The notes under the pieces were generated by a model. It saw only the letters and a program-made list of their open reading frames with translations, was not told the origin of the DNA and made no database searches. From Candidatus Aenigmatarchaeota archaeon (lineage in GTDB: Archaea; Aenigmatarchaeota; Aenigmatarchaeia; QMZP01): a stretch of DNA of 57,004 nucleotides. The position numbers and the translations under genes were made by a program. Position 1 is the stretch's first letter, and each line of letters opens with the position of its first letter. Shown piece after piece: positions 4,078-35,716 of this stretch. The stretch is taken from assembly GCA_015520105.1 (NCBI GenBank), contig WAQT01000010.1, positions 1-57,004 on the forward strand, given 5' to 3'.

Positions 4078-5052
4078 ATGAGGATAAGCTTCAGGCGCGG
4101 ATACACTGTTTATTCAACACCGGGGAACGTGACCTATGTCGCGCTCCATTCAGGTCCTGCTCTCGAGACCGTGACATCAAGGGATGAGAACAGCGAGACC
4201 GTTGCAAGCCTGTGCTGGCTCAAGACCGGTGGAAAGCTTGTGGTTTCGGGGCTTTCGAGGAAGATGTCCTTCGGTATCGACTTCAACAGGGGAATCCCTC
4301 CGAAAAGGGATGCCCTGAAACTCTTTGAGGATTTCATGAAGGATGAGAACAGGGAGAGGCTTTTCGAGTTCAGGAAGAAGTATGCGTGGTCTGCAGCAAG
4401 CGAGGATGACTACAAAAGAAGGCTGGGAATATACAGGAGCTTCTGGGAAGAGGTGAAGAAAGGGGACTTCGTGGTTCTTGTGCACAGGTGCTACACGAGG
4501 ATGAAGAACGTTCCGATGCTCATGGACTTTACAAGCTTTGACGGAAAGGGAATAGACAAAGGGATTCTTGAGGAGGCAGTGAAGGAGGTGAACAGAAAGA
4601 ACGAAAAGTTCTTCAAGAAAATCGAAAAGGAGTACAAAGCGGTCACTCTTATAGAACAGGAAAGGGTGGCAAGGACAATAGAGAGGGTGTACGGAAAGTT
4701 CGTTCTCGGGAAGAGAAACTCCAGCGACCATGCATACAATATCCATGCAGACATGGAGGTTATCAGGAAGCTCTGCCCGAAGGATGTTTTTGAGAAGCTC
4801 TCGGAGAACTTCAGTCCGAGAAACTTCCTCTATGCCTGCAAGAAGGCCCTTGAGAACGCGGACACACCACGGGTTACTGTTGAGCATGTTTTCAAGGGCC
4901 TGAGGTCTATAGGACCGAAGAAGCAGCTTCTCTCAAAGAGAAGGAAGGTTATAAATGTGGAATCCACGGCGTTTCTGAATTTCTGGTATCCTCACAAGGC
5001 CGCGGAGATGATAACAGACGTGGTGGAGAGGATAAGGAATTCAACAACATGA
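4078..5052 (+). CDS. Hypothetical protein
   Basis: 324 aa ORF with coding-like composition. I do not recognise a family. Confidence 0.5.
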   Translation: MRISFRRGYTVYSTPGNVTYVALHSGPALETVTSRDENSETVASLCWLKTGGKLVVSGLSRKMSFGIDFNRGIPPKRDALKLFEDFMKDENRERLFEFRKKYAWSAASEDDYKRRLGIYRSFWEEVKKGDFVVLVHRCYTRMKNVPMLMDFTSFDGKGIDKGILEEAVKEVNRKNEKFFKKIEKEYKAVTLIEQERVARTIERVYGKFVLGKRNSSDHAYNIHADMEVIRKLCPKDVFEKLSENFSPRNFLYACKKALENADTPRVTVEHVFKGLRSIGPKKQLLSKRRKVINVESTAFLNFWYPHKAAEMITDVVERIRNSTT

Positions 5053-5088
5053 CTTTTGAGCCGGGGTCTCCCAGACCTCACAGAAGAG

Positions 5089-5097
5089 TTTTAAATA
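5089..5097 (+). promoter_or_regulatory. Putative TATA box for the tRNA-Arg/tRNA-Pro unit
   Basis: TTTTAAATA centred about 27 nt upstream of the tRNA 5' end at 5120. The other tRNA genes here show the same spacing. Confidence 0.45.
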
Positions 5098-5119
5098 AGT
5101 ACGCATCAAAGTTATACGT

Positions 5120-5423
5120 GCCCCCGTAGCTCAGCTGGATAGAGCACTGGCCTTCTATCCCATATCTCAGGATAGAAGATTCGAGGCCTTCCGGCCGGTG
5201 AGAGGAAAGCCAGGGGTCGTGGGTTCAAAACACAAGAAGGGGAACACATTTCCCCTTCTTAGTGTCGTATCATCCCCTTTAGTACAGGATAACAAGGCAA
5301 GGGTTAACCGATAGTGCAAATGGAGAGGGAACCAAAGTTCCTACTCTTGTATCGTCTATCATGTCACAGGATAACAGGCAACACCATTAACTGGGGATAT
5401 AGAGGGGAATCCCTCCGGGGGCA
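5120..5423 (+). tRNA. tRNA-Arg(UCU) with two introns (about 5158..5207 at 37/38; about 5230..5408 in the T-loop)
   Basis: Acceptor GCCCCCG/CGGGGGC+A. D-arm GCTC-AGCTGGATA-GAGC. Anticodon stem CTGGC/GCCAG with loop CT-TCT-A. T-arm GTGGG-TTCAAA[intron]AT-CCCTC, which implies one U-U mismatch at 50:64. Confidence 0.7.
5250..5333. repeat. Conserved T-loop-intron module (copy in tRNA-Arg)
   Basis: The core 5268..5333 (TATCATCCCCTTTAGTACAGGATAACAAGGCAAGGGTTAACCGATAGTGCAAATGGAGAGGGAACC) matches 26858..26924, differing by one substitution and one 1-nt indel. Confidence 0.85.
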
Positions 5424-5426
5424 CAT

Positions 5427-5707
5427 GGGACCGTGGTGTAGTGGCATCATTGGAGCATGGGGCAGAACCCTTTTACGGGAGGCTGCCGCCTTCCTCAAAA
5501 GCGTTCACGGAAAATGTAAAAGGGTTTTACGGAGCGCTTCAGACCTGGGTTCGATAGAACCCTTTTGGACAGGCAAGCGTCCAAAAGCGTTCACGGAAAG
5601 ACAGCTTCCGCGTAACAACGGGAGCTGACGCTTCCGAACCCTTTTGGACAGGCAAACATCAACGCTTTTGCGTGCCTCCAGAAGGAACGGAAATCCCAGC
5701 GGTCCCA
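5427..5707 (+). tRNA. tRNA-Pro(GGG) with two introns (5463..5534 at 37/38; about 5555..5692 in the T-loop)
   Basis: Acceptor GGGACCG/CGGTCCC+A. D-arm GTGT-AGTGGCA-TCAT. Anticodon stem GGAGC/GCTTC with loop AT-GGG-G. T-arm CTGGG-TTCGA[intron]AT-CCCAG. It starts 3 nt after tRNA-Arg. Confidence 0.7.
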
Positions 5708-7336
5708 TTATATCTTTTCAAGAATTTTCGCGACCCTTTCCCTGCCGGCCACGGTTATGAGGGAGGCCAGCCTTGGGCCTGAGGGCTTTCCCAGAAGAGC
5801 GAGGTATGCGGCCTCGAAGAACCTCTGCGGCCTGATGTTTCTCTTATTGGATATCTCGAAGAAGAGATTGTAAAGCTCCTTCTCGTTCCTGTCCTTCTCC
5901 ACGAGCTTTCCGGCAAGGTCTTTCAGGCATTCCATCTGCTCTGGGGAAAGTTTCTTTACTATTCCCGGGTCAGGGTTGTCTTTTATGCATATCCTGTACT
6001 GTTCCGGGGCGTACAGCCGCGCCCAGTTTCCTGCGAGTACGAGACGCCTCTCCACGCTTTCCCTGTCCTGCTTTGAGAGTTCTCCCTTTATGTGGCCAGT
6101 CCTCTTCAGTATGCCAACAGCCGATTCCAAGAGAGTGTCTCCGGGAACTATCTGGGATATCATTGCAGAAAACGTGTAGGGAATCCTGAGAGGAGGTTTC
6201 TTCGGTATTGTCCTGCTGGACATCTCGTACATCCTTTTCATGTTCCTCCTGTCCTTCTCGTTCCTCTCCTCCTCGAGGCCAAAAAACACCCTCTCAACCC
6301 TCTCGAACTCGTCAACGAGCAGGTGTACGTTCCTGAGGTCGAGGTCTCTCTGCTTTCCCGGTTTCTTCGTGTAGAAGTAGAGGAAAACCTCAGGCTCTAT
6401 TATTTTGAGAATGTCCTGAGTGATGTAGACGTTGCCCTGCGAGGCGCTCATCTTCTCGCCGTTCACGAGGAAGAACTCGTAGACATAGGGAACCGGCGGT
6501 TCTATCTCAAAGACCCTTCTCGCTATCTCCTGTCCGCTTTGCCATGAGCCTGCGTAGTGGTCCTTCCCGAAGGGCTCGAAGTTGGTTTCGAATATCTTCC
6601 ACTGGGCAGGCCACTCGAACCTCCACTGAAGCTTTCCCTGCCTGAAGGAGACCTCTCCTTTCCATCCGCAGCCCTCGCTTCTCTTCTTCTTTATCGCCTT
6701 TCCCCCGCACACGAAACTCACTGTTTTGCTTTCCAGATTGAAGCCGGAGACATTCGTCAGGACACCGCAGTTCGGGCATATCGCGTCGAAGGGTATGTAA
6801 TCCTTTCCCTTGGTCTTCTGGTACTTGCTTATAATCTCTCCTGCTGTCTCCGCCTTCCTGAACACCGTCTCTATGTGGGGGTCAAACGCTCCCTTCCTGT
6901 AAAGCTCGTCGTTGGAGAATCTCTCCGGCTTTATCCCGAGTTCGTGGAGGCCTGACACCCAGAGGTTGTCGAAGTGATGGGCGTAGCTCCTGCAGCAGCC
7001 GAACGGGTCGGGTATGTTGCAGAGGGGGTGGCCCGAGTATTTCCTCAGTTCCGGAAACTTTTCCGAGGGGAACCATTTTCCGTCAAGGTCAGCAAGCCTC
7101 GCGGGTATGTCCTTCAGTGGGTCCCTGTCGTCGCTGGTGTTCACGAACCTCGCCTTCGCTCCCTTCTCTGTGACAGCCTTATAGACAAAATAGGCCCTCA
7201 CAGGGTCGTTCAGGTTTCCTATGTGCTTCCCTCCGGAAGGGGTCTGGCCGCTTCTTATGGATACGATTTTCTTCTCCTTCCTTGCCCTTCTTATTACGGC
7301 GTCAGCGAGCTGGTCTGCCCAGAACAGGGATTCCAT
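5708..7336 (-). CDS. lysK: Lysyl-tRNA synthetase, class I
   Basis: 542 aa. It has the HIGN signature (GGKHIGNL), KMSASQG (KMSKS-like) and the archaeal class I LysRS layout. Confidence 0.85.
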   Translation of the reverse strand: MESLFWADQLADAVIRRARKEKKIVSIRSGQTPSGGKHIGNLNDPVRAYFVYKAVTEKGAKARFVNTSDDRDPLKDIPARLADLDGKWFPSEKFPELRKYSGHPLCNIPDPFGCCRSYAHHFDNLWVSGLHELGIKPERFSNDELYRKGAFDPHIETVFRKAETAGEIISKYQKTKGKDYIPFDAICPNCGVLTNVSGFNLESKTVSFVCGGKAIKKKRSEGCGWKGEVSFRQGKLQWRFEWPAQWKIFETNFEPFGKDHYAGSWQSGQEIARRVFEIEPPVPYVYEFFLVNGEKMSASQGNVYITQDILKIIEPEVFLYFYTKKPGKQRDLDLRNVHLLVDEFERVERVFFGLEEERNEKDRRNMKRMYEMSSRTIPKKPPLRIPYTFSAMISQIVPGDTLLESAVGILKRTGHIKGELSKQDRESVERRLVLAGNWARLYAPEQYRICIKDNPDPGIVKKLSPEQMECLKDLAGKLVEKDRNEKELYNLFFEISNKRNIRPQRFFEAAYLALLGKPSGPRLASLITVAGRERVAKILEKI

Positions 7337-7378
7337 ACGAAGAGATGGGTTTCTGGTTTTTTAAGCTTCCTAAAGAAA

Positions 7379-8059
7379 TCAATCCAGCTCCTCGAACGCG
7401 TGGCTGTGCGAGGCCGAAAGCGCGGGTTTCTTCTCCGGCTTGCCGGTTTCCTTTTTTTCCCGAACTTTCTCTCGGCTCTCCTCAGGGGGCTTCCCGAGAC
7501 TCTCGTTTTGAGAAGCTTTCGGTTCCGGCTCTTCGGTTTCAGGCCTGTTCAGGGAGGGAGCAAGCTCCCTTCCGGACTCCGCTGCCGACCTGAGCCTCTC
7601 CTTCACGGACTCCCTGCTCTCGCCGAAGTACCTCTCAAACTCAGGCGTGAGGGAGAGAATCTTGGTGTGGCCCTTCTTCTCGCTTTTTATGAGGCCTCTC
7701 TTCACGAGGTCCTTAATGTAGGAATAGGCCTTGTTTCCCTGAATCTTTATGATGTCCGACTGCTTGACAGGCTCCTTGTACGCGACAAGGGCGAGCGTTC
7801 TCTTCTGGCCTCCTGAGAGGTCGGAATGTGGAGTGAGGTGCGAGACCCTTGGAAGCAGGGAAGTCGGGACCTGCATCTCCCAGCCGTTTGGGGTGGACAC
7901 TATCTCCATTCCCCTTCCGGAGTATTCCCTCTGAAGCTCCTCGAGAATCTCCTTCACGTGGCCGAGAGAGTGGACTCCGGATATCTTCCCGAGTTCGTTT
8001 ATCATGAGAGGCCTCGGGGATATGAAGAGCGCGGCCTCGATTAACCTTTTCGCTTCCAT
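7379..8059 (-). CDS. scpB: Segregation and condensation protein B with a charged low-complexity C-terminal tail
   Basis: The N-terminus IEAALFISPRPL... and two winged-helix-like halves are typical of ScpB. It lies directly downstream of scpA. Confidence 0.75.
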   Translation of the reverse strand: MEAKRLIEAALFISPRPLMINELGKISGVHSLGHVKEILEELQREYSGRGMEIVSTPNGWEMQVPTSLLPRVSHLTPHSDLSGGQKRTLALVAYKEPVKQSDIIKIQGNKAYSYIKDLVKRGLIKSEKKGHTKILSLTPEFERYFGESRESVKERLRSAAESGRELAPSLNRPETEEPEPKASQNESLGKPPEESREKVREKKETGKPEKKPALSASHSHAFEELD

Positions 8060-8063
8060 TCTA

Positions 8064-8765
8064 TCAGTTCTCCGGCTTCCTTATGAAAATCTCCCTGAAC
8101 ATCTCCTCCTGCCTGCACTTCACCTTGTTCTCGTGGTCGAGGAACACCAGAGGCAGGAAGTTGCTTATTATTTCCTTCCTCTCCCACTTCTCCACCACGC
8201 TGCTGAACTCAACCTCCTGCTTCTTCACTCTCGAGAGGAGGTCGTTTATCTTCCTGTAGAGAAGGGATATCCTCTTTGTTATGTTGTCCTCCTCTATTCT
8301 TATCTTTTTCTTCCTGCTTTCCTTCCTCAGGATTCTTCTTTCCCTTGACCTCAGGGCGCTCCTGAGGGCCTTCACGAGGTCGTCCACCACTATCTTCTTT
8401 CTCGGGTACCTGTTCGGGGGGACGCTTATCGGGTTTATCTCCAGTTCGGAGACGGATTCGTTCTCCTCTTCCTGCTGGGGCTCTTCCACACTGTCAGGGT
8501 CTATGTATTCGCCCTCCACTAGGTCTCCCATGTACTGGAGGTGGTCGGACTTCATCCTCAGGAGGACAGAAGCAATCATCACGTATTTGGCCGGTATCTT
8601 GAAGTCCATCTTCTTGAGCTTGTTTATGTATTCAAGAAAGGCGGTGGACAGGACGTTGAGGTCGAGATTCCACGGATCGAGGCCCTCCCACGCTATCACC
8701 TTGTAGAGCACCTGCTCCCACGTGTATTCCTTTGTGATGAAGTCCAGTATCTTTTCCTCTTCCAT
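8064..8765 (-). CDS. scpA: Segregation and condensation protein A (kleisin)
   Basis: 233 aa with the ScpA pattern ...LDPWNLDLNVL...YINKLKKMDFKIPAKYVMIASVLLRMKS. Confidence 0.75.
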   Translation of the reverse strand: MEEEKILDFITKEYTWEQVLYKVIAWEGLDPWNLDLNVLSTAFLEYINKLKKMDFKIPAKYVMIASVLLRMKSDHLQYMGDLVEGEYIDPDSVEEPQQEEENESVSELEINPISVPPNRYPRKKIVVDDLVKALRSALRSRERRILRKESRKKKIRIEEDNITKRISLLYRKINDLLSRVKKQEVEFSSVVEKWERKEIISNFLPLVFLDHENKVKCRQEEMFREIFIRKPEN

Positions 8766-8805
8766 ATCAATTTCCTCCGGGTGCGGACGTTCGGCCAGCC
8801 TGAAG

Positions 8806-9040
8806 GCCGGAAGCGTGAGCTCCTGTTGTGTTTACCTGCATGTTTTCCGTACACGCTTTGGCGGAAGCGGGTGCCTGCCTGGTCATAACCAACTACATTG
8901 CGGACCAGGATTGCTTTGTGAGCTCCCGTCTTTGTTTTCAAGGGGTTTGGGTCAACAGCCTTTGGAGCACCTTCTCCTGCTCCCAACAGAAGGTGCATCA
9001 AGAGGGAGCTGACCGCTTCCATCCTGCGGCAGCCTCGAAA
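8806..9040. repeat. Intergenic repeat island 1 (modules shared with tRNA introns and island 2)
   Basis: 8830..8859 resembles 12391..12419. 8968..9033 matches 12446..12510 at roughly 94%. 8994..9020 is the exact reverse complement of 26627..26653 inside tRNA-Glu intron 1. Confidence 0.85.
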
Positions 9041-9094
9041 GGCTGTTAAGAACTAATTAATTATAATGGAATCGGGGGTTTATATAGGATTGTG

Positions 9095-9433
9095 TTATTT
9101 GCAGTTCCATACCCATATTGCTGATGCATCTTCTGATGATTTTTCACAGTTGCAATTCGCTTGTTCTGCTATATCTTTGCAAGTAGTTAATTTCTTATTA
9201 CCAGAAGAATATACCATCTCCAGTTTAACATTCTGCAACTGGCTCTTTACAGCGGCGTCATTGCCTGCGGCTGCACATAAAGGCGTAGCTATGCTACTGC
9301 AATATGTTTTTGCTTCTGTAAGCGTGGAGAATCTTGTTATAGTGCTTCCGAAAATGGTGAGTACCACAAGCGCAGCCACCAGAATGACTATGGCTGTCAC
9401 TATTATAACGAGGGTGTGGGACATTCCCTTCAT
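9095..9433 (-). CDS. Class III signal peptide (archaeal type IV pilin-like) protein, Cys-rich C-terminus
   Basis: N-terminus MKGMSHTLVIIVTAIVILVAALVVLTIF, i.e. a short basic leader, Gly, then a hydrophobic helix. Confidence 0.55.
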   Translation of the reverse strand: MKGMSHTLVIIVTAIVILVAALVVLTIFGSTITRFSTLTEAKTYCSSIATPLCAAAGNDAAVKSQLQNVKLEMVYSSGNKKLTTCKDIAEQANCNCEKSSEDASAIWVWNCK

Positions 9434-9603
9434 AATGTTTAATTTATGGTGCCCGGGGTTTATAAAATATGCATGTTTTTCGGGCCTGTCTGATTAACCG
9501 GAGTGAACGCAAACCTCTCCTGAAACACAAAACCGGTACGGAACAGGAATTTCGACCTGAAGATGCTTCAGTCATGTTTATTGATTCTTTCCTGTTTGAG
9601 AAC

Positions 9604-10053
9604 CTATGTCTGGAGTGAATTATTGGACACGCTTGTGTTTTTCACAATCCTTTTTACCCTTATTATGAAATCCCTGAAGTCTTTCATCCTTTTCTCCAGA
9701 ACCTCAAAAACAAGCTCGTCATCGATATGATTGTATCTGTGAACCAGAACGTTCCTGAAACCGCGCATTCCCCTGAGTTTTTTCACAAGAGATTCTGGAA
9801 ACACCCCCTTGCTTTCCAGTTCATCCAGCATATCCTTTTCATCCCCCGGTATGCCGAGCCTCAACCCTGAAACTATCATGCTGCAAATGTCCATAACACA
9901 TTCTATGCTTATATGAAGCAATCTTTCGCACGCCCTTTTCTTTTCCTTTGAATCTGCATATTCTTCATAACTCTTCGGTTTTATCTCCTCAAGTTCCCTG
10001 AGATATCCTTCAAGTTCGTCAATCTTTCCAAGGATTCTTTCCCTGTCAATCAT
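9604..10053 (-). CDS. HEPN-domain (DUF86) protein, putative toxin of a HEPN/MNT pair
   Basis: The R(x4)H-type motif RNVLVHRY lies near the C-terminus. The start ATG at 10053 overlaps the upstream MNT stop by 8 nt (ATGATTGA). Confidence 0.7.
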   Translation of the reverse strand: MIDRERILGKIDELEGYLRELEEIKPKSYEEYADSKEKKRACERLLHISIECVMDICSMIVSGLRLGIPGDEKDMLDELESKGVFPESLVKKLRGMRGFRNVLVHRYNHIDDELVFEVLEKRMKDFRDFIIRVKRIVKNTSVSNNSLQT

Positions 10054-10447
10054 TCTCCACGCTCCCCAGATATTCCTCATAATATTTCCGGAAATACTCG
10101 AAATCCTTTGCTGTTCTAAATGCGATCTCATAAAGCATATCCTCATCCCTCAGGAAGATAATCTTTCCTTCTTTCAGGACCCTTGTCCTTATATAAAGGG
10201 GCAGCAACTCGAATATCTGCACATCAAACCTCTCGCCGAGCATGCCGGAATACTCGATTCTCATATCCAGAAGCCTTTTCCTGTTCAATCCCGGTATGGT
10301 AACAAAACACAAATCTATATCCTCTCCCTTCCCTCGAAGCGAACTTCCGAAAAGAATAACTGCTATCACATTCCTGTCCTTCTCGATTTTCCTTCTCACG
10401 TTTTCCGGAATCAAAACATTCTCTGCTTTCATGCAAAGATTTTGCAT
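10046..10447 (-). CDS. Minimal nucleotidyltransferase (MNT), putative antitoxin
   Basis: Motif VILFGSSLRGKGEDIDLCFV (GSx10-ish DxD of the Pol-beta NTase fold). The start may be 10432. Confidence 0.7.
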   Translation of the reverse strand: MQNLCMKAENVLIPENVRRKIEKDRNVIAVILFGSSLRGKGEDIDLCFVTIPGLNRKRLLDMRIEYSGMLGERFDVQIFELLPLYIRTRVLKEGKIIFLRDEDMLYEIAFRTAKDFEYFRKYYEEYLGSVEND

Positions 10448-10488
10448 TCCTGATTAAAATCTTTTAATTTTTGCCGGAAACTTTTAAC

Positions 10489-11391
10489 ATGATTCCGGAA
10501 AAGCTCAGGAAAGAACTCGAGCACCAGCAGTATCGCATAGTGGGAGGCCATTCCGCTGTGAAGATATGCGAGTGGACGAGGAAGTCCCTGAGGGGAGAGG
10601 GCGTGTGCTACAAGGAGAGGTTCTACGGAATAAGGAGCCATCGCTGCCTCCAGATGACTCCGAACATAACCTGCGACCAGGCGTGCCTGTTCTGCTGGAG
10701 GGTGATAGAGAAGACCAAAGTCTTCTTCTCCAAAGGATGCGACGAGCCGGGCGACATAATAGACGGCTGCATAAGGGAGCAGGCGAAGCTCCTTTCAGGC
10801 TTCGGCGGATTCGAGGGAACGGACAGGAGGAAGTTCGAGGAGGCGAAAAAACCGAACAACGCGGCCATCTCCCTTCTTGGCGAGCCGCTACTCTATCCGA
10901 GGATATCCGAGCTCATAGAGGGGTTTCACAGGAGGGGTTTCACTACGTTTCTCGTAACGAATTCCCAGCATCCCGAGATTCTGGAAAGGATAGCAGAGCC
11001 CACACAGCTTTACATATCAGTGGACGCCCCGGACAGAGAAACGTACAGGCTTCTGGACAGGCCCGCAAAGAGGGACTTCTGGGAGAGGCTTCTGGAGAGC
11101 CTTGATGCAATGAGGGGTTTCTCATGCAGGAGGGTGTTAAGGCTCACTCTCGTGAAGGGATACAACATGAAGAACCCGGAGGGCTACGCGAAGCTTATAG
11201 AGAGGGCGAGCCCGGACTTTGTGGAGCTGAAGGCGTATATGCACATAGGAGAATCCATGAAGAGGCTTCCGAGGGAGGCGATGCCGCTACACGAGGAGGT
11301 CAGGGAGTTCTCCGAGAGGGTTTCCGAGCTTTCCGGCTATCCCATAAAGGACGAGCAGAGGGAGAGCAGGGTGGTTCTTCTCTCAAGGTGA
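10489..11391 (+). CDS. taw1: tRNA 4-demethylwyosine synthase (radical SAM, Taw1/TYW1)
   Basis: QQYRIVGGHSAVKICEWTRKSL...RCLQMTPNITCDQACLFCWR is typical of Taw1. I chose the ATG at 10489 over the TTG at 10471. Confidence 0.75.
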   Translation: MIPEKLRKELEHQQYRIVGGHSAVKICEWTRKSLRGEGVCYKERFYGIRSHRCLQMTPNITCDQACLFCWRVIEKTKVFFSKGCDEPGDIIDGCIREQAKLLSGFGGFEGTDRRKFEEAKKPNNAAISLLGEPLLYPRISELIEGFHRRGFTTFLVTNSQHPEILERIAEPTQLYISVDAPDRETYRLLDRPAKRDFWERLLESLDAMRGFSCRRVLRLTLVKGYNMKNPEGYAKLIERASPDFVELKAYMHIGESMKRLPREAMPLHEEVREFSERVSELSGYPIKDEQRESRVVLLSR

Positions 11392-11913
11392 ATGCTCCGC
11401 GTCTTCTTCGAGAAGCTTCCCCCTCTCCCGAGGAATCACCCTCTTCTTCGCTTCAGGGAAGTCGAAGGAGAGTTCCCTGCTTTCAAAGTATTCATGAAGG
11501 AAGACTGCAAGAGCCGCGACCTCGGAGTGGGGCTGGTTAGTGACAGCGATGTTGTAGTCAGAGAGGGAATAGACTTCCGAAGGAACCTTCTCTCCGCCTA
11601 TTATGACAAGGATGTCTTGGTGCTTCCTGATTTCCCTGATTCTTGTCTGGAGAGGCAGGCCGTACATGGTTAGGTGAACGCTCTTTCCCGGAAATTCCTT
11701 TATAATGTCTTTCCATTTTCTGACATAGCGGACATGGAAACTTCCTCCCCATTCCCTGGACACGGAATTGATCGAGTCCTCGAGGGAGGAGTCCTTCTCG
11801 CCGGAGTATAGAAGCTCGCTCGCGCCGAAGGCCCTCGCAACGAGACCGCAGTGAGTGGATATCCTCTTATCCCTGAACGGCCTGTGGCCGAGCCTTAGAA
11901 CAGTCATTGCCAT
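11383..11913 (-). CDS. trm56: tRNA (cytidine56-2'-O)-methyltransferase (aTrm56, SPOUT)
   Basis: N-terminus VLRLGHRPFRDKRISTHCGLVARAFGA matches the aTrm56 signature. Confidence 0.75.
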   Translation of the reverse strand: MAMTVLRLGHRPFRDKRISTHCGLVARAFGASELLYSGEKDSSLEDSINSVSREWGGSFHVRYVRKWKDIIKEFPGKSVHLTMYGLPLQTRIREIRKHQDILVIIGGEKVPSEVYSLSDYNIAVTNQPHSEVAALAVFLHEYFESRELSFDFPEAKKRVIPRERGKLLEEDAEHSP

Positions 11914-11943
11914 GCATTTATTTTCTCGGAAGGTTTAAAACTG

Positions 11944-12285
11944 TCAGCACGTGGTGTGGATCACTGCCGCGGCCTTCTTTCCTTCCTTCACAAGCCCGTT
12001 GAATATGTCGCACGCATTCTCGGATACATCCATAAAAAACTTCACCCCCTTTGTTTCCGCAAGCTCCCTTGCATCGTCTGTTATTTTAAGTATTCCGGAT
12101 ATCCCTGTTCCTATCACAACGGAGTCCGGGTTTCTCTCCAGAACGCGGACAAGCTCCTCCACTCCGAAAACGTGAGACTTCGGCCGCATGGAGAGAGAGC
12201 CGTCCCAGAACACTACGAGGTCTGAATAGTAGGTCTTTCCGTCCACTGTTATCTCCCCGAACTTCACGGAATCGATGTGAACCAT
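11944..12285 (-). CDS. Mth938-like domain protein (DUF498)
   Basis: 113 aa with F.G...vDGK.Y..DlvV and a VVIGTG core. A TATA-like AATTTAAGA lies about 24 nt upstream on the minus strand. Confidence 0.55.
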   Translation of the reverse strand: MVHIDSVKFGEITVDGKTYYSDLVVFWDGSLSMRPKSHVFGVEELVRVLERNPDSVVIGTGISGILKITDDARELAETKGVKFFMDVSENACDIFNGLVKEGKKAAAVIHTTC

Positions 12286-12339
12286 GTTTTTATTTCCCGG
12301 TAGGTCTTAAATTGTTGGAGGGTTTTCCTCAGTGCTTAG

Positions 12340-12673
12340 AAGAGGCGGATTCGCGAGTTTCCGCTTCCATGTTGCGGAAGCATCCGTTACGTTTACCTGC
12401 ACGTTTTCCGTACACGCTTGTTTCCGTCAGGAAACTCCCTGCCGGCACCTTCTCCTGTTCCCAACAGAAGGTGCATCAAGAGGGAGCTATCGCTTCCATC
12501 CTGCGACAGCGTCTGTTGCGTTTACTTTGCGTATTTTCCGTACACGCTTGTTTCCGTCAGGAAACTCCCTGCCGTCAGGCAGAGGATTGCGGAAGTGTAA
12601 ACTCCCGTAAAAGGGTGTGCGGTAGCGGTGTTTCCGTGAACGCTTTAGCGCGCTTGCCTGCGCTAAAGGGTTC
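12340..12673. repeat. Intergenic repeat island 2 (internal 40-nt duplication plus modules shared with tRNA introns)
   Basis: 12404..12443 is identical to 12534..12573 (40 nt). 12446..12510 matches 8968..9033. 12631..12673 is an inverted copy of the tRNA-Pro intron unit at 5557..5599. Confidence 0.85.
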
Positions 12674-13978
12674 TTACCAGCACACGCCTTCAAAACCATC
12701 GACTTTCTTGGGGTCCAGCGCCCTCCTGCCCTCTATTATCACACTTCCCCTCATCGCGGAGAAATCATCGTCCGTGAGGTCCCTGAACTCCCTCCATTCG
12801 GTCACGACAAGGCAGGCATCCGCTCCCTTCAGGGCCTCTTTCGCGCTTTCTGCGTAGCCTATCTTCGGGAACGCTTTCCGGAAGTTGAACATTGCCTTCG
12901 GGTCGTAGGCGACCACGCCGGCTCCCTGCCGGATAAGTTCGCTCACTATGCGCAGCGCAGGGGATTCCCTGACGTCGTCTGTCTCGGGCTTGAACGCGAG
13001 TCCGAGGACAGCGATTCTCTTTCCCTTGAGGGAACCGATTCTTTTCTTAAGGAGGTCTATCATCCTGTAGGGCTGCCTTGAGTTCACGTTTATCACCTCC
13101 TTCAGAAGGGAGGCGTTGTAGCCGAGCTTCTCTGCCTTGCTCACGAGGGCGAGGACGTCCTTGGGGAAGCATGAGCCTCCAAACCCTATTCCGGCCCTGA
13201 GGAAGTGGGGAGATATCCTGCTGTCCAGACCGACGCCCTTCATAACTTCATAGGCGTCTATCCCGAGCTTCTTGCAGATGTTCCCTATCTCATTCGCATA
13301 GGTTATTTTCATTGCAAGGAATGAGTTTGAGGCGTACTTTATCATCTCCGCCACCTTTAGGGAAGTTCTCAACACAGGGGCCGCAAATCCCCTGTAGAGA
13401 AAGGCGAGCGTCTCTCCGGAACGCGGGTCAAGCTCTCCTATCACTATCCTGTCCGGGTTGAGGAAATCCTCGAGCGCGCTTCCCTCCCTGAGGAACTCTG
13501 GATTCATGCACACGCCGAAACCGGGACCCGCCTTCTTTCCTGAACCCTCCTCGAGGTTCGGAATCACCACCCTCTCAGTGGTTTCTGGCGGGACAGTGGA
13601 CTTGACCGCAACCACATGGTAATGCTCCTTCAGCCTCAGGGCCTTTCCTATTGCCTTTGAGGAATCCTCTATATACCTTAAATCAGTATCTCCGTTCCTC
13701 CTTGACGGCGTCGGGACGCATATGAAGGTTATCTCCGACTCCGAGACAGCGTAATCGAGATTCGTGGTCGCCTCTATATTTCCCTCTCTTCTCAGTTCCT
13801 TGAGCATTTCCCTCAGTCCAGGCTCGTATATCGGGCTCTCTCCGGAGTTTATCCTTTCCACCTTTTCCTTGTCTATGTCCATGAGTATGGTCTTGAATCC
13901 CTTCTTTGAGAAGCCGACTGCTGTGGTTAACCCGACATATCCTGCGCCTATCAGCGATATCCTTACCTGCTTCCTCAT
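12674..13978 (-). CDS. ugd: UDP-glucose 6-dehydrogenase
   Basis: 434 aa with N-terminal GAGYVGL Rossmann motif, catalytic GFGGSCFPKD, and a C-terminal UDP-binding domain. Confidence 0.8.
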   Translation of the reverse strand: MRKQVRISLIGAGYVGLTTAVGFSKKGFKTILMDIDKEKVERINSGESPIYEPGLREMLKELRREGNIEATTNLDYAVSESEITFICVPTPSRRNGDTDLRYIEDSSKAIGKALRLKEHYHVVAVKSTVPPETTERVVIPNLEEGSGKKAGPGFGVCMNPEFLREGSALEDFLNPDRIVIGELDPRSGETLAFLYRGFAAPVLRTSLKVAEMIKYASNSFLAMKITYANEIGNICKKLGIDAYEVMKGVGLDSRISPHFLRAGIGFGGSCFPKDVLALVSKAEKLGYNASLLKEVINVNSRQPYRMIDLLKKRIGSLKGKRIAVLGLAFKPETDDVRESPALRIVSELIRQGAGVVAYDPKAMFNFRKAFPKIGYAESAKEALKGADACLVVTEWREFRDLTDDDFSAMRGSVIIEGRRALDPKKVDGFEGVCW

Positions 13979-26363: not shown

Positions 26364-26420
26364 GGATAGTCCGGATGTTTATATATGTTTTGCGTGCCTT
26401 ATAAATGGTTGCAGAAACAG

Positions 26421-26430
26421 ATTTAAAAAC
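26421..26430 (+). promoter_or_regulatory. Putative TATA box for tRNA-Glu
   Basis: ATTTAAAAAC lies about 28 nt upstream of the tRNA 5' end at 26453. Confidence 0.45.
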
Positions 26431-26452
26431 ACAGAAACAATGAAATTTACGC

Positions 26453-26961
26453 GCTCCCGTCGTCTAGCCCGGTCAAGGATACGAGCCTCTCGAATGAGCT
26501 TTTCTCAAGGAAAAAGCTCAACCAACAGGAGGCTTCCGCCTTCCAAGGGGGTTTTCCTCAAGGAAAAAGCTTTGCGGAACAAGCGTGTCACGACTCAGCT
26601 CCCTAAAATGGTTGGGAAGGTGCAAAGGAAGCGGTCAGCTCCCTCTTGATGCAAGAGGTTAACCTTTTGCGGAAGCGAGCGCGAGCGAAGCTCCTGTAAA
26701 AGGTTAGGGAGCAGGAGAAGGTGCAAAGGAGAAAGCTCGGGACGCGGGTTCAAAGCGCAAGAATGGGGACACATTCGTGCCTCGTCAATGAGGATTGTGG
26801 CACGAGACATCTCTGCAATGGTTATATTGGAGATGCAGATCCCCCTTCTTACCGCACTATCATCCCCTTTAATACAGGATAACAAGGCAAAGGGTTAACC
26901 GATAGTGCAAATGGAGAGGGAACCCAGGTTCCCCTCTGCGGTGGGAGTCCCGCCGGGAGCA
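26453..26961 (+). tRNA. tRNA-Glu(CUC) with two very long introns (26493..26733 at 37/38; about 26755..26947 in the T-loop)
   Basis: Acceptor GCTCCCG/CGGGAGC+A. Anticodon stem CGAGC/GCTCG with loop CT-CTC-G. T-arm GCGGG-TTCAAA[intron]T-CCCGC. Confidence 0.7.
26840..26924. repeat. Conserved T-loop-intron module (copy in tRNA-Glu)
   Basis: Near-identical to 5250..5333 in tRNA-Arg. Confidence 0.85.
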
Positions 26962-26967
26962 TCGGAA

Positions 26968-28290
26968 TTACCTGAACAGTCCCTTGCGGCTGTTCAGGGA
27001 CATTCTTTTCATTTTCTCAGTGAAGGTTTTGGTGGTTATCATCATTCCCTTCAGAAGCTTGAGGGCCCTGTCTCGTTTTCTCTTGCTGTGGGTTAGGTAT
27101 AGGTTCAGAAGGCAGAGGTAGTCCTGAATGTGCTTTGTTATGAGGAAGTTCTTTCTTACATGCTCTTTGCCGTTGTGACCAAGCCTGCTCCTTAGCTTAT
27201 CGTTGCCAAGAAGCTGTATTATGCGCTTGGCCGCCTCCCTGTTGGAGTCCACAAGGAAGCCTGTCCTGTTGTTTATCACCTGAAGGGGGATTCCGCCCCT
27301 TCTCTTCGCGACCACAGGGGTTGCCTTCCAGAGAGCCTCGGAAACCACCATTCCGAAACCCTCTCTCTTTGAGTTCTGTATGACAACATCGGATGTCCTC
27401 TGGAGGGCGTTAACCAGCAGGTCGGCGCGTTTCGTGATTATATGTATGTCCCCTGAATCGTTGTTAACCTTTTTTATGAGCCTGTTGTATATGAGCGGTC
27501 CCTCGGGGTCGTCTGTGGCCATGTCTCCTATCATCACAAGCCGGCAATCCGTCTTCTTCTTGACTTCCTCAAATATCTTCACTACACCGAGAGGGTCCTT
27601 CCATTTGTCGAATCTGGAGACCTGGCAGATTATGGGTTTGTCAAGGTCTATCCCGTTTCTGGAGAGGATTCTCTTGCATTGGCTCTTTGTGAGGTGTTTG
27701 TTCTTAAGCGAGAGTGGATCGAGGGGTGGGGTTATGAAGAATTTCGGTATCTTTATGTCCTTCTTCGAGTATTTCTTCATTGTGAGAATTATTCCGTCGT
27801 ATCTGTTTATGTAGCTGCTGAAGAACTTCCAGCTCTCCTTTCTCACCTTGCTTATGTCTATGTGGCATCTCCATATCCAGGGCTGTTTTTTCCTGTAATG
27901 CCTTATCATAGCAAGAGGCTGCGGGTCGTGGACTATTATCAGGTCGTGGTCGTCTATGTGGTTCATTATGGCGTTCTTCTCCACCTCTTCTTCGTAGAGT
28001 TTTATCATCGACTCGCTTATCTTCCTGTTCTCTCCCTGCAATATGTTATGGAATCTTTTTGTAACAGTGAAGAAGGAGTGGGAACCCTTGAGGAGGCGCC
28101 AGCCCGTCTTTATGCCGAGGTTGTTCATCAGGATTACGTGGCTGTTGAGTATCTCAGCCACCCCTCCTCCTGCTGACGTGGAGTTTATGTGGGTTATGTG
28201 CCTTCCTTTTAGGGGTTCTGCTGACTCGTATATCCTCTGTATTTCCTGTTTTCCGACTATTCTCGTGTAGTCGCTTATTCTCGGTATCAT
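26968..28290 (-). CDS. GT4 glycosyltransferase, trehalose glycosyltransferring synthase (TreT)-like
   Basis: The N-terminal block HINSTSAGGGVAEILNSHV...FFTVTKRFHNILQG closely resembles the TreT signature as I recall it. The C-terminal half is GT4-like. Confidence 0.6.
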   Translation of the reverse strand: MIPRISDYTRIVGKQEIQRIYESAEPLKGRHITHINSTSAGGGVAEILNSHVILMNNLGIKTGWRLLKGSHSFFTVTKRFHNILQGENRKISESMIKLYEEEVEKNAIMNHIDDHDLIIVHDPQPLAMIRHYRKKQPWIWRCHIDISKVRKESWKFFSSYINRYDGIILTMKKYSKKDIKIPKFFITPPLDPLSLKNKHLTKSQCKRILSRNGIDLDKPIICQVSRFDKWKDPLGVVKIFEEVKKKTDCRLVMIGDMATDDPEGPLIYNRLIKKVNNDSGDIHIITKRADLLVNALQRTSDVVIQNSKREGFGMVVSEALWKATPVVAKRRGGIPLQVINNRTGFLVDSNREAAKRIIQLLGNDKLRSRLGHNGKEHVRKNFLITKHIQDYLCLLNLYLTHSKRKRDRALKLLKGMMITTKTFTEKMKRMSLNSRKGLFR

Positions 28291-28813: not shown

Positions 28814-28933
28814 TGGACCGACCGGGATTCGAACCCGGAGCCTCCGCCTGTTTCCGAACCTTGCGCTTCTGTTGAGGGAGTGTTGCCCGAAGGTTCTTGC
28901 GAAAGCGGCGATCTACCATTGATCTATCGGCCC
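28814..28933 (-). tRNA. tRNA-Ala(CGC) with one canonical intron of about 48 nt
   Basis: On the minus strand: acceptor GGGCCGA/TCGGTCC with a G3:U70 pair. Loop TT-CGC-A. T-arm CCGGG-TTCGAAT-CCCGG. No encoded CCA. Confidence 0.8.
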
Positions 28934-34318: not shown

Positions 34319-35716
34319 ATGAAGGTTGCGGAAAGGATTTCAGGGTTTCTTGAAAGAAATTCATTGGTTGTTATTATTGCGTGGTTCTCGGTTTTTGGTG
34401 TTTACAGGGTTTCGAGGTACGCGGGGCTGATATCCTTTAACAGCGATTCCTCAGGAGGACTTTTTCTCCCTGATATGGTTAACGTTGCAGTGTTTGCTGG
34501 ATGCGTCTCCCTCTTTTTTGCAGCGTGCTTGCTTTCCATGAGGGTCAGGGATTATAGAAGGCCCCTGCTCATATTTATAGCGTGCATTGCATTTCTGGCA
34601 GGATTCACTCAGTTGACTCAGCCGGGATGGGTTGATGCAGAGGGCTATTACGCACTTGGTGTTCTCGGCGCTGAGAAGGGCCCCCTCTATCTTATCCAGA
34701 ACTATCACACGCTGAACACGAGGTGGAGCGAAGGATTCGTGGCTGAGCTTGAAAGAAGCCTGAAAGGCGCCGGGCTTTATGAATTCGGAATGGAGAAGCT
34801 GAAACCAGAAGTGGGGGACGGAAACATCTACTCGTCGAGGATAGCGAAGCATCCTCCGCTGTGGCCTGTGATTCTTTCATCCTTTATGATTCTGTTCGGA
34901 ACAAGCCGCGCAGCCGCGCTTGCGGCGGAGTGGATAACGGCATCGCTCGTTCCGGTTGTAATATACTTCCTCCTGAGGATGCGTTCGGGAAGCGATAGCG
35001 CTCTCAGGATGTCTCTTCTCTTCGGCCTTGTTCCTGCATTCGTTCTCTCATCATCCGCCCCTCTTCTGGATTCCGTGGTAACGTTGTTTGTTTTGCTTTC
35101 GGCATACTTCCTTGTTTCCGGAAACGATATGGAGAGCGAGAGGAGGATTGCTCTGGCAGGCCTGTTCTGCGGGCTTGCGTTCTTCACAAAGTTTATCGCG
35201 GTGTTCGCAATCGCTGCGTTCGTTCTACTTCTGTTCGCAAAGCATGGATGGAGAAAAGGACTGAGGCGCAGTCTTATATTCGCTTTTCCGATCGCTGGAG
35301 TCTCGCTGGTTTTCATGCTCCTGAACTACTACTTCTTTCTTACCATAATCACAGCAAAGGTGTCAGAAACGCTTTCGTCTGGGCGTTATGCAAAAGGTTT
35401 GATTTTTGACAGCGCGCTGACGCTTTACTACCTCAACTATTTCGGGATAGTTCCTGTATTTATGGTTCTCATGTTCGCGCTGAGAGGGCTGCCTAGAGCG
35501 AGGAGTCTGGTAAAGGATGAGGCGTGGCTCTTTGTCCTGCTATTTGCTTTCCTTCTGGTTGCTTATCCCATAAAAGTCGGAATTGAGAGGCATGCTCTTC
35601 CGTTCTTCATGCTGTGCAGCATGGCTGCAGCGAGGTATATGGAAACGAGGAGCGGCAGGAAGCTCTTTTATGCGGGTTTCCCTCTTCTGATTCTTCAGGC
35701 GCTGCTTCTGAGCTAA
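34319..35716 (+). CDS. Polytopic GT-C-type glycosyltransferase (ArnT/PMT, GT39/83-like)
   Basis: 465 aa with at least 10 hydrophobic helices and a KHPPLWPVIL motif, as in the ArnT/PMT_2 family. Confidence 0.55.
   Translation: MKVAERISGFLERNSLVVIIAWFSVFGVYRVSRYAGLISFNSDSSGGLFLPDMVNVAVFAGCVSLFFAACLLSMRVRDYRRPLLIFIACIAFLAGFTQLTQPGWVDAEGYYALGVLGAEKGPLYLIQNYHTLNTRWSEGFVAELERSLKGAGLYEFGMEKLKPEVGDGNIYSSRIAKHPPLWPVILSSFMILFGTSRAAALAAEWITASLVPVVIYFLLRMRSGSDSALRMSLLFGLVPAFVLSSSAPLLDSVVTLFVLLSAYFLVSGNDMESERRIALAGLFCGLAFFTKFIAVFAIAAFVLLLFAKHGWRKGLRRSLIFAFPIAGVSLVFMLLNYYFFLTIITAKVSETLSSGRYAKGLIFDSALTLYYLNYFGIVPVFMVLMFALRGLPRARSLVKDEAWLFVLLFAFLLVAYPIKVGIERHALPFFMLCSMAAARYMETRSGRKLFYAGFPLLILQALLLS

Follow-up and report, generated by a model that had tools for sequence, protein, structure and literature searches.

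What is the non-coding DNA that separates a pilin-like gene from scpA in an Aenigmatarchaeota genome, and how does it come to share exact sequence with the intron of a tRNA gene? The question is raised by contig WAQT01000010.1 of Candidatus Aenigmatarchaeota archaeon (assembly GCA_015520105.1), whose positions 1 to 57,004 were analyzed here and are called the window. In it, an intergenic block upstream of scpA, island 1, and intron 1 of a tRNA-Glu gene carry the same segments on opposite DNA strands. With a probability of about 0.72, we read island 1 as selfish repeat DNA, a composite of short hairpin modules that recently proliferated in this Aenigmatarchaeota-like genome. The features of the locus are the following:

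8809..9020, minus strand: island 1 proper, repeat DNA of ~212 nt with an inverted cap motif at either end, placed after the probable scpA promoter and ahead of the start codon (8765)
8809..8823, minus strand: left cap or terminal inverted repeat, reading GGAGCTCACGCTTCC and preceded by ACA, as in other archaea
8844..8874, minus strand: copy of the hairpin element, GCACCC-loop-GCGTGT-ACGGAAA (covariance model, 19.5 bits, E 0.004)
8967..9020, minus strand: module common to tRNA-Glu intron 1 and island 2, with 27 and 18 nt exact, 94% identity over 67 nt with island 2, and both hairpins inside
9005..9020, plus strand: right cap or terminal inverted repeat, GGAGCTGACCGCTTCC, within the 27 nt that match the tRNA-Glu intron exactly
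9027..9043, minus strand: upstream copy of a flanking direct repeat, GCCTTTCGAGGCTGCCG, resembling a target-site duplication
8792..8807, minus strand: second copy of this repeat, on the downstream side, GCCTTCAGGCTGGCCG
~9053..9069, minus strand: TATA-like box, CCATTATAATTAATTAG, then TTCT-ACAG, kept in both relatives in an alignment of the three pilin-scpA spacers

A repeat finder and BLAST of the spacer against the window (E 1e-9) both returned 26627-26653 as the reverse complement of 8994-9020 at 27 of 27 positions, where ~2e-7 chance pairs of 27-mers are expected in 57 kb. The BLAST search also gave 26707-26724 as the reverse complement of 8967-8984 (18/18), and both exact matches reported in the first-pass annotation therefore stand. 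The two pieces are separated by 9 nt in island 1 and by 53 nt in the intron, in agreement with the different, longer insert described there. The proposed hairpin, GCTCCC (8979-8984), 19 nt and GGGAGC (9004-9009), is present, and a stronger, perfect 9-bp hairpin, GCACCTTCT/AGAAGGTGC, overlaps it at 8967-8996. The partner had been named correctly too: it is the first intron of an intact tRNA-Glu(CTC) gene, whose three exons, once joined, give a perfect cloverleaf of 75 nt. A kinship with the tRNA-Ala intron, suggested at the same time, did not hold: the similarity spans ~13 nt with a gap, BLAST at E<=10 was silent, and we did not count it. One further match of the repeat finder, at 34988-35025, lies inside a coding open reading frame (ORF) and was taken as chance. 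Island 1 is real and not an assembly artefact, because it was reproduced in an independent contig of a metagenome-assembled genome from NCBI (L001), 99.95% identical over 4.4 kb that include the island. A Logan contig (L002) ends inside island 1 at 8858, as expected because of the repeat there.

ScpA homologues put the window in DPANN, among proteins labelled Aenigmarchaeota, and the nearest of them are 66-67% identical. Two relatives, L122 and L123/L124, share with the window the gene order UDP-glucose dehydrogenase, DUF498, Trm56, radical-SAM, small pilin-like genes, scpA and scpB. The spacer between the pilin-like gene and scpA is 329 nt long in the window versus 91-100 nt in L122 and L123, and the one between the dehydrogenase and DUF498 is 388 nt long versus ~40 nt in the relatives. 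Because the spacers of the relatives are short, island 1 and a second block, island 2, are taken as insertions specific to the lineage of the window. Between the pilin-like and radical-SAM genes, the window also carries on the minus strand a HepT-like RNase (9604-10146) and a nucleotidyltransferase (10046-10447), a toxin-antitoxin-type pair, in whose place the relatives have small pilin-like ORFs.

Island 1 falls between the stop codon of the pilin-like gene and the ATG of scpA. The ScpA proteins of the window and of the relatives align at their N-termini, and GGAGG stands 8 nt before the start codon. The segment 26494-26734 interrupts an RNA whose flanks rejoin, as expected of an archaeal intron, and island 1 does not interrupt an RNA or an ORF in this way. 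The earlier remark that scpA has no visible TATA-like box was misleading, since the box listed above is conserved in the two relatives and lies upstream of the island. This box is probably the scpA promoter, and because it is conserved and upstream, island 1 would sit between the promoter and the ATG. To judge from this arrangement, the minus-strand transcript of scpA probably includes island 1 in its leader, and the sense is then that of the copy in the tRNA-Glu intron. Thus, the inverted orientation described for the two copies is correct for the DNA strands but not for local transcription: since scpA is on the minus strand and tRNA-Glu on the plus strand, both copies probably have the same sense, and no antisense pairing is implied.

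The organization of island 1 is similar to that of a miniature inverted-repeat transposable element (MITE), and we read it in this way because it ends in inverted caps, is flanked by an imperfect direct repeat, contains no ORF that matches a family, and has several related copies. It is small, multicopy (modules are present in island 2 and three tRNAs) and non-coding, the overlapping ORFs having no match in Pfam, which agrees with the lack of a credible ORF noted before. The terminal inverted repeats read GGAAGCG-TG-AGCTCC at 8809-8823 and GGAAGCGG-TC-AGCTCC at 9005-9020, and the left cap is identical to the reverse complement of 9005-9020 at 13-14 of 16 positions. The flanking direct repeats at 9027-9043 and 8792-8807 match at 15 of 18 positions with 3 gaps; 0.5% of shuffles scored as well (p ~0.005), and the relatives are too diverged to show an empty target. 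Between the caps, the hairpin element at 8874-8844 on the minus strand reads GCACCC[12]GCGTGTACGGAAA, with the covarying triplet, the C.C mismatch and the ACGGAAA tail; this copy is degenerate, without the TTT/AAA part of the stem. Moreover, the order of arm, ACGGAAAA tail, ACA and cap in the left half of island 1 is the same as in other archaea with the element. A K-turn/L7Ae reading of the ACGGAAA tail was rejected, as the opposite strand offers no GA, and no resemblance to the consensus sequences of self-cleaving ribozymes was apparent. The boxes of a C/D box small RNA (RUGAUGA, CUGA) are absent from both strands of 8766-9094, with the closest TGATGA falling within the pilin-like gene (~9135).

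The second block was not listed in the first-pass annotation:

12286..12673, minus strand: island 2, another insertion of these modules that is specific to the lineage, in the spacer from UDP-glucose dehydrogenase to DUF498

Its 67-nt stretch in common with island 1 is in direct orientation. A full hairpin element opens island 2 right behind the TAA stop codon of the dehydrogenase, a unit of ~130 nt is repeated in tandem within the island (12362-12444 resembles 12491-12574), and the TATA-like box of DUF498 is downstream of the island.

The same modules were observed in tRNA genes of the window, which are arranged as follows:

5120-5157, 5208-5229 and 5409-5423: exons of tRNA-Arg(TCT), with introns of 50 and 179 nt
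~5427-5463, 5536-5554 and 5693-5707: exons of tRNA-Pro(GGG), with introns of ~72 and 138 nt
5463..5692, plus strand: introns of tRNA-Pro(GGG), made of the hairpin element, with cap GGAGCTGACGCTTCC at 5621 and covariance-model matches at 5465-5506 and 5557-5598
26453-26493, 26735-26754 and 26948-26961, plus strand: exons of tRNA-Glu(CTC), with introns of 241 nt at position 37/38 and 193 nt in the T-loop
26494..26734, plus strand: intron 1 of tRNA-Glu, which holds the 26627-26653 and 26707-26724 partners and several other hairpin modules
28814-28933: tRNA-Ala(CGC), matched by Rfam

The exons of the Glu, Arg and Pro tRNAs were joined by hand in silico and gave perfect cloverleaves; together with tRNA-Ala, all four are complete in cis. 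ARAGORN with default settings found no tRNA in the window and, with introns allowed, found tRNA-Ala only. Thus, three of the four tRNA genes, Arg-TCT, Pro-GGG and Glu-CTC, each with a long canonical intron and a long T-loop intron, were missed by both ARAGORN and the Rfam tRNA model. The tRNA-Arg and tRNA-Pro genes are 3 nt apart.

The tRNA-Glu(CTC) gene of L123 is flanked by PAC2 and TreT-like genes, as it is in the window, and its exons are identical at 74 of 75 positions. However, its 37/38 intron measures 13 nt (TAAACAGGAGAAA), of which only the 3' end, AGGAGAAA, is common with the 241-nt intron of the window, and its T-loop intron measures 16 nt versus 193 nt. On this comparison, old mini-introns are inflated in the lineage of the window. 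The tRNA-Pro(GGG) gene of L122 adjoins lysS as in the window and is intronless, and tRNA-Arg(TCT) of L122 has an intact T-loop and a single canonical intron of 44 nt, homologous to the 50-nt intron of the window. This points to a gain of the tRNA-Pro introns and of the tRNA-Arg T-loop intron in the lineage of the window, with loss in L122 as the alternative given the few relatives. Three contigs were inspected for further lysS neighbors that could polarize the tRNA-Pro gain; one was too short, and two had different neighbors. In the T-loop intron of tRNA-Pro, the tail CGGA-AA pairs with the T-loop UUCG, and this gives the junction predicted from the intronless L122 orthologue. The T-loop introns of tRNA-Arg (5230-5408, 179 nt) and tRNA-Glu (26755-26947, 193 nt) also share a module distinct from that of the island, 91 nt at 90% identity (5252-5341 versus 26842-26932), which includes CAGGATAACAAGGCAAGGGTTAACC and has no Rfam match. 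A second stretch shared by these two genes covers 37 nt at 84% (5214-5250 versus 26739-26775).

The unit common to these sites is a hairpin element of the form NNNCCCTTT-loop-AAAGCGN'N'N'ACGGAAA, often with a GGAGC-N-GCTTCC cap. The 15-mer TTTCCGTRNACGCTT has six copies in the window against 0.03 expected and is confined to the two islands and the tRNA-Pro introns; for the motif TTTCCGTACACGCTT of the island 1 element, the figures are the same, six copies against 0.03 expected. In a 16-mer scan of representative genomes, ~55 of the 119 matches listed were archaeal, and about half were chance bacterial matches; the archaeal ones among the matches listed came from ANME-1, Bathyarchaeia, Thermoplasmata, Nitrosotalea, Methanosarcinales, Altiarchaeota and many DPANN groups. 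The 16-mer was the 3' arm of the hairpin, AAAGCGN'N'N', followed by ACGGAAA, in 48 archaeal and 0 genuine bacterial cases among the matches listed. An independent scan that left both triplets free gave 139 matches, with at least 11 different triplets and a constant C.C mismatch, and the triplets were fully complementary in 109 of them, whereas 1/64 is the expected fraction. This covariation strongly supports a real hairpin, which either RNA or single-stranded DNA could form.

A covariance model built from fifteen 30-nt elements only, and biased towards the pattern that collected them, found four copies in the window: 5557-5598 on the plus strand (E 1e-6), 12632-12673 on the minus strand, in island 2 (E 3e-5), 5465-5506 on the plus strand (E 0.002), and the island 1 copy at 8844-8874. 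All four copies are oriented along the local direction of transcription. The full alignment was unusable for the model, as MAFFT right-justified the elements of variable length. The model and the pattern scans share the conserved letters by construction, and the independent evidence consists of the triplet covariation, the genomic contexts and the presence/absence comparisons. The cap, the 16-nt core of the 27-mer, was found in the window at 5621 and 9005 and 12483 on the plus strand and at 8823 and 26642 on the minus strand. The same 16-mer occurs unchanged in hairpin loops of other archaea (L200, L227), and the 16-mer or a one-base variant is present in the hairpin loops of family members from unrelated metagenomic archaea (L200, L227, L232, L187, L017). 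No hairpin element was detected in ~20 kb of each relative when a regular expression that allowed <=2 substitutions in the AAAGCGNNNACGGAAA core was used.

In other archaea, the 5' arm of the element begins 0-2 nt from the D-loop, 37/38 or T-loop junctions in more than 35 cases within tRNA genes. Contig L187 (Ga0190338_1001887) contains the element in an intron of an archaeal 16S rRNA gene, and the boundaries of this intron form a textbook bulge-helix-bulge (h AAG/CUU, H GCUG/CAGC, bulges AAA/AGA). The rRNA gene covers 1-1338 of this contig, with 849 model positions in 1338 nt and hence ~490 nt of insertions; that at ~349-422 is the hairpin-element intron, and its loop carries the cap GGAGCTGACGCTTCC. 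In L191 (Ga0307444_1080333), a tRNA at 430-665 has three introns, those in the D-loop and T-loop being hairpin elements, and the T-loop element shares its GGACAGGCAAGC loop with intron 2 of the tRNA-Pro of the window (87% over 67 nt). In L037 and L066 (some DPANN, Altiarchaeales), the element directly follows the tRNA discriminator base and hence lies in the 3' trailer, not in an intron.

The element was also found in protein genes. IS200-like tnpA homologues of four ANME-1 genomes (L003, L015, L069, L109) differ in its presence or absence at three sites, as is expected of a mobile element, with net length changes of +39, +39 (or +45) and +36 nt, all of them in frame and adding 12-15 residues; the inserts read, for example, NPFRKSVYGKMLR and QTLLEKAFTEKRF. 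The frame is kept in the +45 allele because its loop, longer by 5 nt, is offset by one extra base. Of the elements with open reading on both sides, 10 of the 19 in sense orientation were in frame without stops, as against 0 of 8 in antisense. The in-frame copies may be translated, or they may be removed. Twelve IMG/VR contigs classed as viral (L125-L136) carry the element as well, with at least one copy in frame in an ORF (L125, the same contig as L148); these may be archaeal viruses or misclassified cellular fragments.

Within the window, the modules occupy only places that tolerate extra sequence, namely the scpA leader, the spacer after the stop codon of UDP-glucose dehydrogenase and tRNA introns, and the inserts at all these sites are absent or tiny in the two syntenic relatives. 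The copies may spread at the DNA level and then swap segments by recombination or gene conversion, and such exchange would explain the 27/27 and 18/18 identity around different centers. In tRNA genes, the modules would form or extend an intron-internal helix beside the bulge-helix-bulge, where the splicing endonuclease, together with RNA ligase, could remove them. As part of the scpA leader, they would be passively carried on the minus-strand transcript, and translation of scpA would rely on the GGAGG Shine-Dalgarno sequence. An intron-derived mobile or structured element was one of three possibilities raised in the first-pass annotation and is the one favored here, although the emphasis changes: island and intron are both built from one family of hairpin modules, inserted recently in spacers, in mini-introns that already existed, and in tRNAs whose orthologues do not have the introns concerned.

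A wider proposal, which we put forward tentatively and hold to be somewhat doubtful, is that the hairpin element with its cap might be an undescribed mobile element spread across many archaeal groups, an 'introner' for bulge-helix-bulge introns that seeds and inflates tRNA and rRNA introns, enters proteins in frame as a translated loop of 12-15 residues, and accumulates in spacers. A literature search found no description of the hairpin element, which is no proof of novelty. If this proposal were true, island 1 would be a free-standing landing site from a lineage-specific burst, and the locus would offer direct, datable examples of intron gain in archaea.

Several observations weigh against the interpretation of island 1 as selfish repeat DNA. 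No transposase family match was obtained among the 10 proteins scanned around the islands and tRNA-Glu, a scan that included no dedicated transposase search of the window ORFs, and no autonomous parent element of island 1 was found within the 57-kb window. The module copy numbers of this organism are counts within that window only. The flanking direct repeat, with its gaps, is imperfect and is unusually long for a target-site duplication. The empty sites are defined by two distant relatives, from which the exact boundaries of the insertions are unreadable, and transcription of island 1 is deduced solely from the position of the promoter. The 27-nt module gave 0 matches in the JGI metagenomes (pattern TGCATCAAGAGGGAGCTN{2,4}GCTTCC), a collection that apparently does not include the host. 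In addition, the minus strand of island 1 folds more stably than shuffled sequences (-100 kcal/mol, z = -3.5), which is expected of hairpin repeats and is also compatible with a functional RNA.

The best surviving alternative is that island 1 is a spliceable, intron-like unit with paired ends, cut by the tRNA splicing endonuclease at a relaxed bulge-helix-bulge, perhaps into a circular RNA, with the modules being true mobile introns. We regard this as unlikely, even if much of the evidence given above is consistent with it: the introns of tRNA-Pro, tRNA-Glu and perhaps tRNA-Ala consist of the same modules, the 5' arm lies beside the expected splice junction in the tRNA genes of other archaea, the rRNA intron of L187 has a clean bulge-helix-bulge, the tail pairing in the tRNA-Pro T-loop intron yields the correct junction when judged by L122, and all covariance-model matches have the sense of transcription. 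A weak bulge-helix-bulge candidate would even join 9016 to 8805; however, it relies on G-U pairs, and it carries no weight because the strict scan missed true tRNA junctions and gave 3-16 chance matches per region. Moreover, an intron in an untranslated leader restores nothing, so splicing is not required, and the minimal 36-45-nt copies in protein genes have no bulge-helix-bulge and keep the reading frame.

That island 1 is a functional cis-regulatory leader or small RNA, that is, a structured 5' untranslated region for scpAB or a transcript that pairs with the tRNA-Glu intron through the 27 nt, seems improbable to us. Its location between promoter and start codon and its stable minus-strand fold would suit such a leader, but both relatives have a short scpA leader without the island, indicating that scpA does not need it, and the repeats of the island also follow a stop codon and occur in several tRNAs. 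Pairing would use the perfect complementarity to the intron, provided that the plus strand is transcribed; upstream on that strand, the flank is scpA coding sequence with no AT-rich TATA-like box visible, and an island co-transcribed with scpA would have the same sense as the intron and could not pair with it. The unannotated non-coding RNA suggested earlier fares no better as a conserved gene, as the orthologous spacers of both relatives lack the sequence. Infernal searches of Rfam 15, the check proposed along with that suggestion, matched island 1 to no family, the only gathering-score match in the window being tRNA-Ala, and permissive scans of 5000-12800 and 26400-27000 gave noise only. Finally, a remnant of a tRNA gene, either a split-tRNA half with a complementary leader, as the first-pass annotation had also considered, or a decayed intron-rich pseudogene, is hardly credible, for although the island shares sequence with a tRNA intron and the host tRNA genes are so intron-rich that the search programs overlook most of them, tRNA-Glu, tRNA-Arg and tRNA-Pro form full cloverleaves from cis exons, 8766-9094 contains no tRNA signal at Rfam E<=5 and no readable T-arm or acceptor-like segments, and the pilin-scpA spacers of the relatives contain no tRNA.

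Taken as selfish repeat DNA, island 1 bears on the origin and movement of archaeal tRNA introns, a question that is not settled. The two syntenic relatives provide a clean comparison, in which a 13-nt intron has become one of 241 nt, both tRNA-Pro introns stand against none, and two spacers have been filled. As a single repeat family is found in introns and spacers, intron growth would be tied to ordinary repeat proliferation and not to tRNA-specific biology. If the family is confirmed to be mobile, it would be a selfish element common to many archaeal groups, including the genome-reduced DPANN, and a source of small in-frame protein insertions. On the practical side, tRNA genes such as the three overlooked here escape ARAGORN and Rfam, and assemblies break at the repeats.

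Among known systems, the repetitive extragenic palindromic (REP) sequences and bacterial interspersed mosaic elements (BIMEs) of bacteria are clustered short imperfect palindromes, placed in both orientations between the genes of operons and co-transcribed with them, and REP elements are linked to REP-associated tyrosine transposases (RAYTs). REP elements are not known to occur inside tRNA genes. The hairpin modules described here, unlike these, are archaeal and lie within tRNA genes, and no RAYT-like gene was noticed, although no dedicated transposase search was made. The split-tRNA leaders of Nanoarchaeum and Caldivirga (PMC3218864) are similar in being intergenic and complementary to a stretch that is joined to a tRNA exon; unlike them, island 1 has no attached tRNA half, and the tRNA is intact in cis. 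Rickettsia palindromic elements (PMC10969869) are palindromic inserts found in frame in unrelated proteins and in non-coding DNA, to which the ANME-1 tnpA inserts of 36-45 nt can be compared, but the element reported here is archaeal, measures ~28-60 nt versus ~150 bp, has an unrelated sequence, and also occurs in tRNA and rRNA introns. With prokaryotic MITEs (PMC10969869), island 1 shares small size, non-coding and multicopy character, terminal inverted repeats, a flanking direct repeat, strong hairpin potential and an intergenic location. It differs from them in having no identified parent insertion sequence or transposase among the 10 proteins scanned, in its long, imperfect flanking repeat, in 'inverted repeats' that are copies of a near-palindromic cap also found in hairpin loops, and in being a mosaic of modules instead of one unit. 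The closest described phenomenon is the transposition of bulge-helix-bulge tRNA introns in Thermoproteales, where gain was inferred at the DNA level by a mechanism 'still unknown' and removal is by the splicing endonuclease (Fujishima et al. 2010, as summarized in PMC4090602), features that our proposal has in common with it. In comparison with those introns, the modules here also build intergenic islands and, in other archaea, occur within 16S rRNA and as in-frame inserts of proteins. A further difference is that the host belongs to DPANN and has introns that reach 138-241 nt by concatenated or nested hairpin modules, and conservation of the core hairpin motif extends over many archaeal groups.

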